Positions 814 through 13,053 of a DNA stretch of 64,000 nt are shown piece after piece. The notes beneath the pieces are model-generated. The model was not told where the DNA came from, ran no database searches, and saw nothing but the letters and a program-made list of their open reading frames with translations. The stretch's first letter is position 1; the number at the start of each line of letters is the position of its first letter. The position numbers and the translations under genes were made by a program. The DNA lies in sequence record OP114734.1; one strand, given 5' to 3'. The stretch is from Escherichia phage vB_ESM-pEJ01.

Positions 814-1712
814 TAAAAGTCTCCGTAGTTAACCTGAAAACATTCTACACCAATTGAGCGGTACATGTCAACCACTTGATCACGGTCATCTACCGCCAAA
901 ACAACATGATAACGCGGTGCAATTTCAGAGAAGAAAATCTCTTTCTTCACTTCATGATCAGGACGACGATCATTAGTTTCACGTTGAAAGTGATCACTCG
1001 GTTCAATACCCTGTTCACGCAACCATTGCAGAGTATCTTCTTCGCAAACATCCTCACGCCCTGAGCATGTAATGATACGATAACCATTATCACGATACAG
1101 TTTAAGCATTTCGATCACTTGCGGACGCGGTTTATCTTCTTTGACCTTTGTCCAGTCAAACGGATGACGACCGCCCTTATCCGCTAATGTTCCATCAATA
1201 TCAAAGATCACTGCCTTCGGCAGCATGGTATTCGGTTTGTATACTTCTTGACCCATATATTCCTGGGTCAGATAAAATTGGTTACGCAAATGAGAAAGTG
1301 GAATTGCTTTCTCGCCTCGATAGAAATTACGTTTCTTTAGTGTCTCAAATGATTCATTGAACACTTGTTCAGTATACACCGCGTTAAATTCTTTTGCAAG
1401 TTCTTTGTAGAATACACGATGTTTTTCTTTCAGGTTAGTATCAGAGATAATGATACTTAATCCGCGTGATAGAGTCTCACGAGCAATCATTCTCTGAATA
1501 GACTCTACCAGTTTTTCTTTTTCCTTAGTATACTTGTATTTCAAATGTGAGTCAACACCAAACAACATAAGACGAAGATCATCGCGATTCACATTACGAT
1601 AATTACTAAACCGTTTACACGTTTCCATAGCCCATGTAGTTTTACCGGACCCAGAACAACCAACGGTTAAAATCACTTCACATTTCGGCATTATTTCTCC
1701 TTCGGTTTGCAC
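813..1712 (-). CDS. pseT: polynucleotide 5'-kinase / 3'-phosphatase
   Basis: 299 aa; P-loop GCSGSGKTT at N-terminus, HAD motif DIDGTL, C-terminus VECFQVNYGDF matches remembered T4 Pnk end. Confidence 0.9.
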   Translation of the reverse strand: MQTEGEIMPKCEVILTVGCSGSGKTTWAMETCKRFSNYRNVNRDDLRLMLFGVDSHLKYKYTKEKEKLVESIQRMIARETLSRGLSIIISDTNLKEKHRVFYKELAKEFNAVYTEQVFNESFETLKKRNFYRGEKAIPLSHLRNQFYLTQEYMGQEVYKPNTMLPKAVIFDIDGTLADKGGRHPFDWTKVKEDKPRPQVIEMLKLYRDNGYRIITCSGREDVCEEDTLQWLREQGIEPSDHFQRETNDRRPDHEVKKEIFFSEIAPRYHVVLAVDDRDQVVDMYRSIGVECFQVNYGDF

Positions 1713-2143
1713 CGTTCCTCATTAAGTTCTTTTCGATAATAACACATGATCAACTTACTTTCAAGTGTATATCTCTTAATATCCGCAAGCCAGACTCTAA
1801 ATTTTTGGGAGTCCTCCCACGACATAGAAACTCTAGGTTTACCGTCTATTGTATCCACTTTCAGGTCAATGTCAACTTTTTCTATTGGTGCTGGTAGTGA
1901 AGGATGTAATTTCGGTTCCTGTGAATAATGGTCCAGTGTACACGAAGAAAGCGCAAATACAATAGGCACAGCGAATACATGGATTATGGCGGTCTGAAAA
2001 TTCTTATGTGCTTTCTTAAACATCCAGTGTATCGCAAAAATTGAAAACACCATCAGGATAATAATGCTTGCACCTATCCCCAGATAATCAACCAGATTAA
2101 AATTGCTTATCTGCTCTTGCGTAGGCAATATTTCTATGCTCAT
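1691..2143 (-). CDS. membrane protein with lipoprotein-like signal (candidate spanin partner)
   Basis: 150 aa; strong SD AAGGAGG 8 nt before the ATG; hydrophobic segment followed by KKAHK...AVPIVFALSSC lipobox-like motif; position equals T4 pseT.2/pseT.3 spanin locus. Confidence 0.35.
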   Translation of the reverse strand: MSIEILPTQEQISNFNLVDYLGIGASIIILMVFSIFAIHWMFKKAHKNFQTAIIHVFAVPIVFALSSCTLDHYSQEPKLHPSLPAPIEKVDIDLKVDTIDGKPRVSMSWEDSQKFRVWLADIKRYTLESKLIMCYYRKELNEERCKPKEK

Positions 2144-2463
2144 TTAGTAGCCTCCTTTAATTCTTCGGTAAACTCCTTAAATGAGTCATTAAGCTGTTTC
2201 TCTACCAACTTGGGTTTTTGTGCTACTACATAGCCTCGTGTAGCGTCTTTCATTGCTTTGTTTTGTTCTTCTGCAAACTTAGTTCTTATTCCGTACATCT
2301 CCTTTTGTAGTGAGTCTACGACCTTCATCTTCTCATCTGTCTTTTTCTTATACTCTGTAAATTCCTGATTCAGTCGATCTACCTCCTTTTTATTTTCCCA
2401 CCACATATTTCCACCTACCCCCAGCAACACAGAGATGATAACAATGTATACCAGCTTTGACAT
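2140..2463 (-). CDS. i-spanin-like protein (N-terminal TM plus coiled coil)
   Basis: 107 aa from MSKLVYIVIISVLLGVGG; single N-terminal TM then charged coiled-coil region; start re-set to ATG at 2463 to avoid overlap with rnlA. Confidence 0.4.
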   Translation of the reverse strand: MSKLVYIVIISVLLGVGGNMWWENKKEVDRLNQEFTEYKKKTDEKMKVVDSLQKEMYGIRTKFAEEQNKAMKDATRGYVVAQKPKLVEKQLNDSFKEFTEELKEATK

Positions 2464-9985: not shown

Positions 9986-11206
9986 TTATACTGCCATTTG
10001 AGCGGTGATCGCTGGATGGCTTTGATAGTTGTGAATTTTAAAATCTTTCGGAGTCTTTGTCAATACCTCATCTAAAGATTTAAATTCCGGCAACTCAATT
10101 GTTGGTTTATCAAACGGAACACGGCTTAACTGTTCCATAACTTGATCAAAATGGTTTTTGTAAATGTGAGTATCTCCACCAGAGAAAATCAGTTCTCCTA
10201 CCTCAAGATCACACATTTTCGCTATGATGTGAGTTAACAGCGCATAGCTGGCGACGTTAAAGGGCAAGCCCAAAAAGCTGTCTACGCTTCGCTGAAACCA
10301 CATACAAGACAGTTTACCTTCATTGACGTAGAATTGTACGAACGGATGACATACACCCAATACAGCATTATGTGTTCCTTGTACGTTCCATGAGTCAATG
10401 ATGATACGTCGATCCGTTGGATTGTTTTTAATTTGTTCAATCACGTTTTGTAACTGGTCTTCCCAAATCTTCGGGCGATAGACATATTCTTCATCGTCTT
10501 TAGTGCTTGATGTGTCTACGTCCATACTAACAAACATCGTGGTATCCGGTGCTATAATATCCCCACCCAGATAATCACTATCAAGCAGATAACCGAAATA
10601 ACCATCATCTACCCATTCCTGGAATCCCCACAAGCAATATGCATCATTAACAAAATTAGATTGAGTCTTCCAGTGGTCTGCTACCAGAATATAATCAAAC
10701 TCTTCATAACGCATACCACGCCAGATAGCACATAAACGGTCTTCTGTGTCATTGGTTGGCGTAAAGTCTTCTACCCACGGGTGCTTAAATGTATGTGTAT
10801 ATTTGCTCTTAACGCGCTTAATTTTGATTTCACCATGTGGATGAATCGGTTTGCGTCTCCACGCCATACCATACATATTGCCGACATTATAACCATTGAA
10901 TCGCAAGGGATTCTTTTCTTTCATATCAAGACAGTTGCCGCGCCAAATATCAAAGGCTTCCTCGTCAAACTTGCCGCGTGTAATTTCCTGTAAGCGACGG
11001 CGGTCAAGTGATCCCTCCATAAACCATAGCAATTCGCCAATTACAGAGGCTGTAGCCATCTTTTTAGTGGTCAGTAATGGGAAACCCTTGCTTAAATCAA
11101 TTCGCATCTCTGCGCCGAATTTAGAGAGCGTACCTACCCCCGTGCGGTCTTCACGAGGACAGCCATTATCAAGAACATCACGCAATAGTTTCAAATATTC
11201 TTTCAT
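9986..11206 (-). CDS. td: thymidylate synthase with ~115 aa in-frame insertion
   Basis: 406 aa; N- and C-terminal thirds match remembered T4 Td (C-terminus HPAITAQMAV vs T4 HPPIKGKMAV); extra segment between the WR motif and the ...DRRIIIDSWN block. Confidence 0.85.
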   Translation of the reverse strand: MKEYLKLLRDVLDNGCPREDRTGVGTLSKFGAEMRIDLSKGFPLLTTKKMATASVIGELLWFMEGSLDRRRLQEITRGKFDEEAFDIWRGNCLDMKEKNPLRFNGYNVGNMYGMAWRRKPIHPHGEIKIKRVKSKYTHTFKHPWVEDFTPTNDTEDRLCAIWRGMRYEEFDYILVADHWKTQSNFVNDAYCLWGFQEWVDDGYFGYLLDSDYLGGDIIAPDTTMFVSMDVDTSSTKDDEEYVYRPKIWEDQLQNVIEQIKNNPTDRRIIIDSWNVQGTHNAVLGVCHPFVQFYVNEGKLSCMWFQRSVDSFLGLPFNVASYALLTHIIAKMCDLEVGELIFSGGDTHIYKNHFDQVMEQLSRVPFDKPTIELPEFKSLDEVLTKTPKDFKIHNYQSHPAITAQMAV

Positions 11207-11447
11207 CCCACATCACCTTTTTCTTATTGATTGCTTTCTTACGCAGTTTTGCTACTGTCTCGTCAATGTCTATAAAGATAACACCACGGTCGAATATAGT
11301 AGCAGGTCTTGATATATCGCTATTTTCTTGCACAGGAAGCCATGATGCGCTCGCTTCATCATAGAGATATTGTAAACCGTAATAATCTACGGCTACTGCG
11401 TAGTTTTCACTGGTAGCTGACCATAATTGAATAATACCGACTTTCAT
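11178..11447 (-). CDS. hypothetical protein
   Basis: start re-set to MKVGIIQ ATG at 11447, which overlaps the stop of the upstream micro-ORF (TAATG). Confidence 0.45.
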   Translation of the reverse strand: MKVGIIQLWSATSENYAVAVDYYGLQYLYDEASASWLPVQENSDISRPATIFDRGVIFIDIDETVAKLRKKAINKKKVMWDERIFETIA

Positions 11448-11539
11448 TATTGTTCCCGTCCGCAATGTAAACACCGACTACCAGCAAACATCAAAGATTC
11501 ACCACAATGTTTGCACTCATAATCTGTCAGAATTTTCAT
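11447..11539 (-). CDS. zinc-ribbon micro-protein (30 aa, CxxC...CxxC), not in ORF track
   Basis: MKILTDYECKHCGESLMFAGSRCLHCGREQ; SD GAAGG inside the frd 3' end; stop overlaps next gene start. Confidence 0.45.
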   Translation of the reverse strand: MKILTDYECKHCGESLMFAGSRCLHCGREQ

Positions 11540-11540
11540 G

Positions 11541-12122
11541 TTACGCCTTCTTACGTTCTAAAATTTGTTCGCTGATCAGGTAATCATCAAGGAAGTAATT
11601 ATGTTCTTCTTTTGTTGCAAAGTCAAAATATAATTCCTGAATCATTTCCTTAGAGATGCCAACATCATATTCAAACAGATCATTAATTCCTGATCGTTGA
11701 ACATACGTTAACACAATACGGTCCGCAAAGTCAACTGCTTTTTCAATCAGGGAAGGTCCGCCAATAACGCTTACCAAACCTTGCAATTTCTCTATGACTT
11801 CTAATAATTCCTTCAATCCACCATCATTAGTAATCTCGGTATACACATCTGGTTGGTCGCCGTTTTTTGCTTTCGGTGCTGGCTTACTGGTATCGGTGCT
11901 AACAACCACATTCACACGACCTTCCAGTGCTTTAGGGAGACTTTCAAAGGTATTACGTCCCATTACAACCGCCGCAAGATCAACATCTCCCATAGTGCGC
12001 ATTTTAAAGTTTTCCATGTCCTTTTTGATTGGACGTCCCCACGGTAAACCGCCTTTAAAACCAAAAGCCCAATTTTCATCTGACATTTTAGTATCACCAA
12101 TCGCAAATACACATTGAATCAT
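11541..12122 (-). CDS. frd: dihydrofolate reductase
   Basis: 193 aa; DHFR fold motifs (...GLPWGRP...); upstream of td as in T4. Confidence 0.85.
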   Translation of the reverse strand: MIQCVFAIGDTKMSDENWAFGFKGGLPWGRPIKKDMENFKMRTMGDVDLAAVVMGRNTFESLPKALEGRVNVVVSTDTSKPAPKAKNGDQPDVYTEITNDGGLKELLEVIEKLQGLVSVIGGPSLIEKAVDFADRIVLTYVQRSGINDLFEYDVGISKEMIQELYFDFATKEEHNYFLDDYLISEQILERKKA

Positions 12123-12498: not shown

Positions 12499-12527
12499 AT
12501 TATACTTTGATTCTTACAAACTTGCAA
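12499..12527 (-). promoter_or_regulatory. sigma70-like promoter (TTGCAA-17-TATAAT)
   Basis: canonical spacing; drives ORF 12138..12467. Confidence 0.5.
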
Positions 12528-12937
12528 CCTAATTCTTTTTCAATTTGTTTCTGGCGCTCTATGTCCTGAGTAATTTTGTATTTGTGTTCCGGTTCGTCGA
12601 TTTCATAAGCAACGTTATTAACCGGATCATAACCATCAATTCTATACCCCAATATAGGGTATTGTCGTTTTAATTTTATATTCAAAAGCTGTTCTATTGT
12701 GTCTAGTGCAATCTTTTCGGCAGCTGATAATCCAAAACGTATTCCAAAATATTGTTTCCTCACCGCTTCCGCAAGTTCTTCTGTTAAAATTATTTGCTTC
12801 TGTTTTCTACCATACACATCAAAATATTCACTATAATCATAACACAGACCTGTGTTTCTTGCAACCTTTTTTATGTCTCTAGTTACATGGGCATGACGTT
12901 TATTAAATTCTTTCGCAATATCCAGTGAGCTAATCAT
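12500..12937 (-). CDS. Rha-like regulatory protein with C-terminal nuclease-like segment
   Basis: 145 aa; N-terminus ISSLDIAKEFNKRHAHVTRDIKK resembles phage Rha family; C-terminus GYRIDGY...AYEIDEPEH acidic motif; occupies the T4 frd.1-frd.3 slot. Confidence 0.45.
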   Translation of the reverse strand: MISSLDIAKEFNKRHAHVTRDIKKVARNTGLCYDYSEYFDVYGRKQKQIILTEELAEAVRKQYFGIRFGLSAAEKIALDTIEQLLNIKLKRQYPILGYRIDGYDPVNNVAYEIDEPEHKYKITQDIERQKQIEKELGCKFVRIKV

Positions 12938-12964: not shown

Positions 12965-12992
12965 ATTATACATTACCACATCATCATGTCAA
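12965..12992 (-). promoter_or_regulatory. sigma70-like promoter (TTGACA-16-TATAAT)
   Basis: upstream of ORF 12500..12937 with SD GGAGG. Confidence 0.45.
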
Positions 12993-13015: not shown

Positions 13016-13044
13016 AATAAAAAAGCCTCCCCTAAGGAAGGCTT
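13016..13044 (-). terminator. rho-independent terminator after gene 32
   Basis: GC-rich imperfect hairpin followed by T-run on the minus strand, just after the gp32 stop. Confidence 0.5.
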
Positions 13045-13053
13045 TAAAATTCA

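Follow-up and report, generated by a model that had tools for sequence, protein, structure and literature searches.

A frame of 30 codons and a stop lies between the dihydrofolate reductase gene frd of Escherichia phage vB_ESM-pEJ01 and the next open reading frame, and it raises the question of whether such a short stretch is a gene and, if so, what its product might do. An earlier note, made from the letters of the window (the whole stretch of DNA analysed here, 64,000 nucleotides long), had described it as an unannotated zinc-ribbon micro-gene, translationally coupled to the genes on either side. The sequence agrees with the structural part of this description, namely a 30-aa frame with two CxxC pairs, an ATG directly after the frd stop, a GAAGG Shine-Dalgarno sequence and a TAATG overlap with the downstream ATG. 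To this it can be added that the frame is on the minus strand, which the note did not state, and that a single base, the C at 11540, separates the frd stop from the ATG. The features of the locus are collected in Table 1.

Table 1. Coordinates of the micro-gene, its parts and the surrounding features, numbered from the first letter of the window.
Feature	Position	Strand	Basis or remark
Micro-gene, 30 codons and TAA	11447..11539	minus	sequence and ORF list; product MKILTDYECKHCGESLMFAGSRCLHCGREQ
Micro-gene ATG	11539..11537	minus	sequence
Micro-gene stop TAA	11449..11447	minus	sequence
First putative zinc knuckle, C9-K-H-C12, codons TGC AAA CAT TGT	11504..11515	minus	C9, K10, C12 and the adjoining G13 invariant
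Second putative zinc knuckle, C23-L-H-C26, codons TGT TTA CAT TGC	11462..11473	minus	C23 and C26 invariant
frd (dihydrofolate reductase), upstream cistron	11541..12122	minus	Pfam DHFR_1, E=1.2e-20; PHROG 316; frd in the annotation of relatives
frd stop TAA	11543..11541	minus	sequence
Shine-Dalgarno-like GAAGG for the micro-gene	11546..11550	minus	in the final frd codons, 6 nt upstream of the ATG
TAATG junction, micro-gene stop and next start	11445..11449	minus	1-base overlap (shared A); next ATG 11447..11445
GGGAA, weak Shine-Dalgarno-like, putatively for the downstream ORF	11453..11457	minus	micro-gene codons G27-R28-E29
89-aa hypothetical protein, RB49p236 / PHROG 16012	11178..11447	minus	PHROG 16012, E=8.7e-60; annotated in RB49, Phi1 and G37-3
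td	9986..11206		start overlapped by 29 nt by the 89-aa ORF
Sigma-70-type promoter-like site, TTGACA-16-TATAAT, 12/12	12965..12992	minus	consensus scan alone

Identity and annotation of the micro-gene

By exact-sequence look-up, MKILTDYECKHCGESLMFAGSRCLHCGREQ is identical to the RefSeq protein NP_891808.1, the product of RB49p237, which is recorded as "predicted by Glimmer", and the same peptide is present on 24 contigs. The RB49 coding sequence (138343..138435) occupies the same position, after frd, and the frd-td segment as a whole is 94-99.7% identical to 58 Krischvirus genomes (the RB49, Phi1, JSE and GEC-3S group), with vB_EcoM_G37-3 as the best match. The peptide also matches PHROG 17317 from end to end (E=4.8e-22, 78.3 bits, residues 1-30 on positions 1-30 of the 31 in the profile), and a family HMM built in this work returns the window copy at 76.6 bits as its sole match in the window. 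Judged by sequence, the micro-gene is thus the same gene as RB49p237 and a member of the RB49p237 / PHROG 17317 family, from whose hypothetical 30-34-aa proteins of T4-like enterobacterial phages it does not differ. Since both the RB49 RefSeq record and PHROGs already contain the family, the gene is not new; its existence would not surprise a T4 specialist, nor does it open a long-standing question.

The description "unannotated" consequently holds for the ORF track, which lists frames of at least 60 aa, and for some GenBank records, and fails for RB49 and PHROGs. The gene was left out of the Phi1, JSE, G37-3, 011D4, PEi20, CHI14 and Mineola records, and in Phi1 the locus tags go from 238 to 236 at this point. 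Other homologs have been misnamed, such as the VAC36 protein UEP19393.1 ("DNA-directed RNA polymerase") and the third-party record DAH85589.1 ("DNA-directed RNA polymerase II subunit"). No publication on RB49p237, and no Ribo-seq or mass-spectrometry data on it, came up when the literature was searched by locus tag, accession and topic. With regard to alternative queries, the PM2 homolog, read as 40 aa by extension upstream, recovered PM2's own protein only, and a 154-aa concatemer of five family members gave no significant match.

Conservation, selection and loss

Within the window, the CxxC pairs, at residues 9-12 and 23-26, set the micro-gene apart, as it is the only one of 382 ATG-initiated ORFs of 20-59 aa to contain a CxxC-x(6-20)-CxxC arrangement, while Markov shuffles of the window yield on average 0.16 ORFs with paired CxxC motifs. 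This rarity is suggestive and is by itself no proof of a gene. A frame arising by chance, a non-coding spacer or a decaying piece of a larger zinc-finger protein, for instance the finger of a homing endonuclease, could be envisaged here: the frame is very short, many annotation pipelines skip it, 0.16 such ORFs per shuffled 64 kb is not negligible, and mobile endonuclease genes abound in the region. The coding status is decided by the conservation data and not by the count of chance ORFs.

A tblastn search with the 30-mer returned 300 phage records, of which 290 had at least 80% query coverage. The Krischvirus copies (58 records) are 90-100% identical to the query. Phages of Klebsiella, Enterobacter, Salmonella, Citrobacter, Serratia, Edwardsiella, Pectobacterium, Erwinia and Raoultella contribute about 240 more, which show 47-67% identity to it. 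At least ten T4-like genera contain a homolog of 30-34 aa. Representatives were fetched from Moonvirus, Kanagawavirus, Gelderlandvirus, Winklervirus, Marfavirus, Jiaodavirus, Mosugukvirus, Karamvirus and Kagamiyamavirus, and each presented an ORF of 31-34 aa with the consensus M[KR]IL[TS]DW[ED]CKYCGxxLxxxGGxCxxCGMRQG. In the family alignments I3, L4, D6, C9, K10, C12, G13, L16, G20, C23 and C26 are invariant, although, owing to the phylogenetic relatedness of the copies, fewer independent events lie behind the conserved features than their counts suggest.

Across 12 diverse copies the proposed frame alone is free of stops. Pairwise Nei-Gojobori comparison of these copies gave a saturated pS of 0.744 and a pN of 0.222, the resulting ratio of 0.30 being an upper bound, whereas in the shifted frames pN/pS was 1.21 and 1.03. 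Closer relatives show the same pattern: five nucleotides differ between the SSG23 and window micro-genes and two between those of RB49 and the window, all of them synonymous. The only protein changes within Krischvirus are A19V in GoldenSnicker and S21G in 011D4, the latter being a return to the family consensus.

In metagenomic data, a search of IMG/VR with a degenerate DNA pattern for DW[ED]CKYCG found 23 loci, 20 of which encode an intact family protein, 31-34 aa long and with its four cysteines in place; the remaining three encode unrelated long proteins that share only the eight-residue knuckle motif and were set aside. No family member was found among the bacterial and archaeal genomes with the core motif (185,579 species genomes searched), the pattern matches there being unrelated proteins with the same common eight-residue motif only. 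An RNA element was also considered and rejected, as no Rfam model matched near its gathering score and folding of the sequence equals that of shuffles (z=0.16).

The conservation of the frame and of the cysteines in relatives, which the earlier note had named as a check on its proposal, is therefore positive, in some 300 phage records and 20 IMG/VR copies read in the same frame. On this comparative evidence the micro-gene is clearly a real protein-coding gene under purifying selection. The reading as a chance frame or a fragment appears effectively refuted already by the conservation analysis and we give it next to no credence: frame, length and cysteines are kept in at least ten genera with a pN/pS of 0.30, family members are missing from the 185,579 bacterial and archaeal species genomes with the core motif, and the relatives of the peptide are stand-alone proteins with no larger parent (see below). 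The locus is a well-supported case of a 30-codon gene that standard pipelines drop, and the signature [MF][KR]IL[TS]D[WY][ED]CK[YH]CG-x2-L-x3-G-x2-C-x2-C, together with the flanking stop/start overlaps, could serve to rescue it in hundreds of Straboviridae genomes.

Not all T4-like phages have retained the gene. Tequatrovirus and Mosigvirus are not represented among the tblastn matches at E<=10, and the six-frame translation of the T4 gene 32-nrdA region contains no match to the family HMM; in T4, frd.1 and frd are separated by 71 nt, and the frd and td genes overlap. All copies examined have an open frame apart from that of phage E26, where a 1-nt insertion at codon 22, just before the second knuckle, removes the second CxxC pair. 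The shifted frame of E26 runs into that of ORF236 and has been annotated as a single 120-aa CDS; this apparent fusion was discarded as a Rosetta-stone hint, since it comes from a 1-nt insertion, either a frameshift or a sequencing error. In one metagenomic Krischvirus-like contig (L011) only 'ATGAAAATT' is left, followed by different small genes. Given its absence from T4, the frameshift in E26 and its replacement in one metagenomic relative, the micro-gene is regarded as accessory and not core, and by these comparisons it is most likely a dispensable accessory peptide gene.

Genomic context and proposed coupling to the neighbouring cistrons

The window is that of a Krischvirus, in which the micro-gene belongs to the early region of nucleotide metabolism around gene 32, frd and td; its genomic neighbourhood is the same in all 58 Krischvirus records. 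A terminator-like hairpin follows gene 32 (13045..13022), and the promoter-like site of Table 1 is found just downstream of this hairpin. Judging from its sequence, this site could drive an operon of frd, the micro-gene, ORF236 and td, and the micro-gene would then be transcribed early, within the frd-td message.

Outside Krischvirus the arrangement is different. The micro-gene is downstream of frd in Krischvirus, whereas in most other genera it lies upstream of frd, after an frd.1-like or another small gene. Between genera it is followed by at least four unrelated families, or by frd itself, and preceded by four kinds of gene, and the RB49p236-type ORF is unrelated to the genes that follow it in other genera. 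As the neighbours are shuffled in this way, the micro-gene appears to stand by itself, with no fixed partner gene; a fixed two-gene module with the downstream ORF was accordingly rejected, since the neighbours on both sides belong to several unrelated families.

In spite of the changing neighbours, the junctions are conserved. The upstream geometry is that of coupled cistrons, with the frd TAA, one nucleotide, the ATG and a Shine-Dalgarno sequence inside frd, the 3' end of which reads ...GAA CGT AAG AAG GCG TAA on the minus strand; the GAAGG is the same in all Krischvirus loci extracted. At the downstream end, a stop/start overlap with the next gene is present in 19 of the 20 IMG/VR copies, with unrelated downstream genes, and overlaps of the form TAATG, TGATG or TAGTG occur in nearly all GenBank loci examined as well. 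In other genera the equivalent Shine-Dalgarno element is a GAGG or AAGG provided by the codons of the "MRQG" tail. Of 29 distinct family sequences, 26 use AGG for the tail arginine, compared with a background of 3.4% of the arginine codons in the long ORFs of the window and 1 in 30 elsewhere in the micro-gene. In the codon pattern ATG-AGG-CAR-GGN, this AGG generates a GAGG 6-9 nt before the next ATG, and in the Melville record the downstream ribosome-binding site is annotated on this GAGG. The window copy has CGG and not AGG for the tail arginine, which leads to the weaker GGGAA.

Since the adjoining glutamine and glycine codons vary freely, selection at the tail arginine seems to act on nucleotides, and the requirement for a Shine-Dalgarno sequence would make the conservation of the tail partly nucleotide-level and not protein-level. 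The tail thus appears to be dual-coded, with C-terminal codons that double as the Shine-Dalgarno sequence of the next gene, an unusual dual constraint. The conserved overlaps and the AGG/GAGG bias favour translational coupling at both ends. Of the coupling claimed by the earlier note, the junction geometry, the overlap in 19 of 20 IMG/VR copies and the AGG/GAGG tail can be read from the sequences, and from these we infer the coupling itself, to both neighbours. Ribosomes that terminate on frd, with its stop 1 nt upstream and the GAAGG in its tail, would start on the micro-gene; those that finish the micro-gene would restart at the overlapping TAATG by termination-reinitiation, and the 3' end of the micro-gene would supply the next cistron with its Shine-Dalgarno sequence.

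Taken further, these features could mean that the ORF does nothing other than ferry ribosomes and house a Shine-Dalgarno sequence, the peptide being a functionless by-product. Such a pure translational relay would fit the overlaps at both ends, kept in nearly all copies, the AGG bias that makes GAGG for the downstream cistron, and the dispensability of the micro-gene in some lineages. The amino acids of a mere relay would be free to vary, yet 11 residues, all four cysteines among them, are invariant while synonymous sites are saturated; moreover, the length is fixed at 30-34 aa, the micro-gene sequence is kept while both neighbours change, and many adjacent genes in these phage genomes are coupled directly, without a relay ORF. 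We therefore regard a relay without a functional peptide as highly improbable.

A probable zinc-ribbon peptide and its possible role

Coupling to the neighbours and the production of a functional peptide can be combined, and the explanation that we consider very probable is that of a genuine RB49p237 / PHROG 17317 micro-gene, coupled to its neighbours and encoding a Cys4 zinc ribbon that acts as an accessory protein-binding module. With regard to the zinc ribbon, the family peptide has the spacing [W/Y]-x-C-x2-C-x10-C-x2-C, and the four cysteines of its two CxxC pairs are invariant in the family alignments and in the 20 IMG/VR copies. By sequence the 30-aa product is probably a single Cys4 zinc ribbon. 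Of the AlphaFold2 models, obtained with a 10-sequence alignment, the best is compact, with four beta-bridges and a pLDDT of 84.9, and the other four are of low confidence, with values of 57-73. The zinc-ribbon likeness proposed in the earlier note is hence upheld by the cysteines and by the best model, as a generic likeness alone. One Zn2+ would be held by the two CxxC knuckles, and the conserved aromatic residue 7 together with Leu16 would form a tiny core.

Profile and structure searches place the peptide near zinc-binding modules in general. Foldseek against the PDB gave weak matches, the best at E=1.3, which are mostly zinc-binding (the RNA polymerase beta-prime zinc domain, Rpo12/Rpb12, Nop10, NZF, MDM2 and the ChsH2 ribbon); with a best E value of 1.3, homology gives no functional handle. 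No Pfam or NCBIfam family reached its threshold for the product, the scores being 22.5 bits against a gathering threshold of 23.4 for Zn_ribbon_DZR_6 (PF10005), 17.2 against 27.3 for DZR (PF12773), and 15.4 against 63 and 10.6 against 89 for the NCBIfam RpoP models NF001605 and NF001607. Among the PADLOC defence models there was nothing meaningful, the only match being to PDC-S64 (E=0.029, 12 bits). In a profile search of 1.84 billion representative proteins, the true relatives were confined to proteins of 30-32 aa that stand alone, in three clusters, and a larger parent protein was not found; the long HMMER matches (C2H2 arrays, DZR and RanBP proteins) were dismissed as homologs, being generic cysteine-motif matches. 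Ribosomal protein L36 had come to mind for its similarity to the "RQG" C-terminus, a likeness that was dropped as the Pfam scan gave no Ribosomal_L36 match at E<=1.

The misleading names mentioned above would suggest that the peptide resembles an RNA polymerase subunit of the RpoP/Rpb12 type, and Rpo12 is indeed its top PDB sequence match (E=0.004). This match consists of two 8-14-residue knuckles in swapped order, to which the spurious "DNA-directed RNA polymerase" names of UEP19393.1 and DAH85589.1 can be attributed. Given in addition the low RpoP scores, that to our knowledge bacterial RNA polymerase has no P subunit, and that T4-like phages rely on the host RNA polymerase, a polymerase subunit is an extremely improbable identity for this peptide.

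The inference of a protein-binding module draws on three observations, namely conservation beyond the metal ligands, a near-neutral charge and the shuffled neighbours, so that the proposed role is one suggested by composition and analogy. The conserved positions other than the ligands comprise those of ILTD[W/Y][E/D]CK[Y/H]CG, L16 and G20 and, outside Krischvirus, the MRQG tail. With regard to charge, the window variant is approximately neutral to slightly acidic, and the forms from outside Krischvirus are slightly positive overall. The peptide would thus be a zinc-stabilised module that stands on its own and, early in infection, binds to a protein of the host or of the phage.

The main rival to protein binding is a nucleic-acid-binding zinc finger, which would contact RNA or DNA and act as a regulator of DNA metabolism or of how neighbouring messages are translated or processed. 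A comparison that bears on it is with the RanBP2-type/NZF fingers (PF00641), which have about 30 residues, the same spacing and, at the second position ahead of the first cysteine, an aromatic residue, as does the family consensus DWECKYCGxxLxxxGGRCxxCG, the window copy having Y for W. Some RanBP2-type fingers bind single-stranded RNA, and RanBP2-type and RBM10 fingers are among the weak HMMER and Foldseek matches; the location of the micro-gene among DNA-precursor genes and gene 32 and the small positive charge of the non-Krischvirus forms would also be in keeping with a nucleic-acid ligand. However, PF00641 is not matched even at E<=1, and RanBP2-type fingers have a conserved asparagine four residues after the second cysteine, a position at which the phage family has the invariant Leu16. 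The likeness to RanBP2, as read from the sequence, is thus one of architecture and not of membership. Furthermore, the window variant is close to neutral or slightly acidic, a single 30-aa finger offers little surface for specific recognition, and the surrounding sequence showed neither a conserved RNA structure nor a repeated DNA motif. We hold nucleic-acid binding to be unlikely, albeit less so than the other alternatives.

The RanBP2-type/NZF fingers also act as small protein- or RNA-binding modules, and by analogy the protein-binding mode may apply to the phage peptide, whose weak matches by fold and by sequence include NZF, MDM2 and RBM10 fingers; they are eukaryotic domains inside large proteins, unlike the stand-alone phage peptide. 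For free-standing peptides of this size, the T4 protein Stp provides a precedent. Stp is a 26-aa peptide that acts on the host EcoprrI/PrrC system, and it illustrates that functional early peptides of T-even phages with fewer than 31 aa can bind a host protein complex; it has no cysteines, no sequence similarity to the micro-gene product and another locus. The E. coli protein YacG, an inhibitor of DNA gyrase, is a small Cys4 zinc-finger protein that stands alone and works by binding and modulating a large enzyme; it has about 65 aa and is not detectably homologous to the phage peptide.

A bolder version of the protein-binding module, which we put forward only tentatively and consider doubtful, is that of a dedicated modulator, dependent on zinc, which would act on one specific enzyme of the host or of the phage. 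Candidate targets would be a component of nucleotide or DNA metabolism or an Enterobacterales host defence factor. If this were true, the modulator would be conserved in at least ten T-even-like genera although most annotation pipelines overlook it, its tail would carry a second code, the ribosome-binding site of whichever gene comes next, and the very short list of functional phage effectors of about this size, which includes T4 Stp, would gain one of 30-31 aa. Irrespective of the target, the peptide is a small-protein candidate that can be synthesised, with a probable metal centre, strong purifying selection and dispensability in some lineages.

A further likeness is that to the generic zinc-ribbon/DZR modules (PF12773, PF10005 and PF13240), which share the two CxxC knuckles in a ...C-x-x-C-G...C-P/x-x-C-G-x-x-Q pattern. 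DZR-type modules are usually found at the N-terminus of larger, often membrane, proteins, whereas the phage peptide stands alone and, unlike them, has the conserved N-terminal ILTDW motif. The P0022 repeats (YCTTCGESLNLAAEICPKCGVRQ) likewise resemble the CKYCGxxLxxxGGRCxKCGMRQ of the family.

Coding and predicted regulatory signals at the 3' end of the micro-gene

Outside Krischvirus, the last 12 nt of the micro-gene, which encode an 'MRQG' tail, invariably read ATG-AGG-CAR-GGN at the comparison loci L006, L008 and L009 and at the other loci. The arginine of this tail is encoded by AGG, a rare codon with a background frequency of 3.4%, in 26 of the 29 distinct sequences, and the choice of this codon therefore provides a GAGG ribosome-binding site for the following gene. 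As read from these sequences, the 3' end would be dual coding, serving both as peptide tail and as predicted Shine-Dalgarno sequence.

Features of the frd-td region and of comparison loci
Feature	Location	Strand	Basis or note
Thymidylate synthase (td), 406 aa	window 9986..11206	-	Pfam Thymidylat_synt
145-aa ORF, Phage_pRha + DUF559	window 12500..12937	-	domain matches
Sigma-70 consensus-like site, TTGACA-16-TATAAT, 12/12	window 12965..12992	-	consensus match
Terminator-like hairpin, 10 bp, after gene 32	window 13022..13045	-	sequence
Micro-protein homolog UEP19393.1	L008 (Klebsiella phage vB_KpnM-VAC36) 1501..1596
Fused 120-aa CDS	L017 (Escherichia phage E26, MN655998.1) 1201..1563		1-nt insertion in micro-gene
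Region after frd with micro-gene remnant	L011 (IMGVR_UViG_3300045988_140627, Krischvirus-like metagenomic contig) about 2070..2320

Disrupted, variant and probably misnamed copies

In phage E26, a 1-nt insertion at codon 22 of the micro-gene (AGTCGG to AGTCCGG) moves the frame into that of the downstream ORF, and a single CDS lacking the second CxxC is therefore annotated; the extra nucleotide reflects either a knockout that arose naturally or an error in sequencing. In the metagenomic contig L011, the first three codons (ATGAAAATT) alone are retained downstream of frd before the sequence diverges into different small ORFs. The recombination breakpoint lies right where the micro-gene begins. 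P0003, the protein representing the Krischvirus peptide cluster, comes from a 2770-bp ENA contig and has Cys9 replaced by Gly (MKILTDYEGKHCG...); either it is a rare variant that has lost a ligand, or this short metagenomic contig contains a read error.

Two homologs, UEP19393.1 and TPA DAH85589.1, are publicly named 'DNA-directed RNA polymerase (II subunit)'. These names stem from a match of both zinc knuckles to RpoP/Rpo12 that is swapped in order and sub-threshold (15.4 bits vs a cut-off of 63), and the label is probably a mis-annotation.

Genes and candidate signals flanking the micro-gene

Upstream of frd, the 12/12 sigma-70 consensus lies directly downstream of the terminator-like hairpin, and this candidate site may start a transcription unit that includes frd and the micro-gene. 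The slot flanked by gene 32 and the RB49p239-like ORF holds the 145-aa ORF, in which an N-terminal Phage_pRha domain is joined with a DUF559 (Vsr-like endonuclease) domain. No close nucleotide match to this ORF was found among 50,697 phage records, where the flanks alone match, and relatives carry other endonuclease-like genes in the same slot (RB49p240 and the 392-aa G37_3_00240), which looks like a variable slot for mobile endonucleases.

With regard to td, the Thymidylat_synt match to the window protein is split into two stretches, with residues 250-406 falling on model positions 110-266, which implies a putative in-frame insertion of ~140 aa inside the protein relative to the 266-position Pfam model. 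The RB49 td, as annotated, is of similar length.
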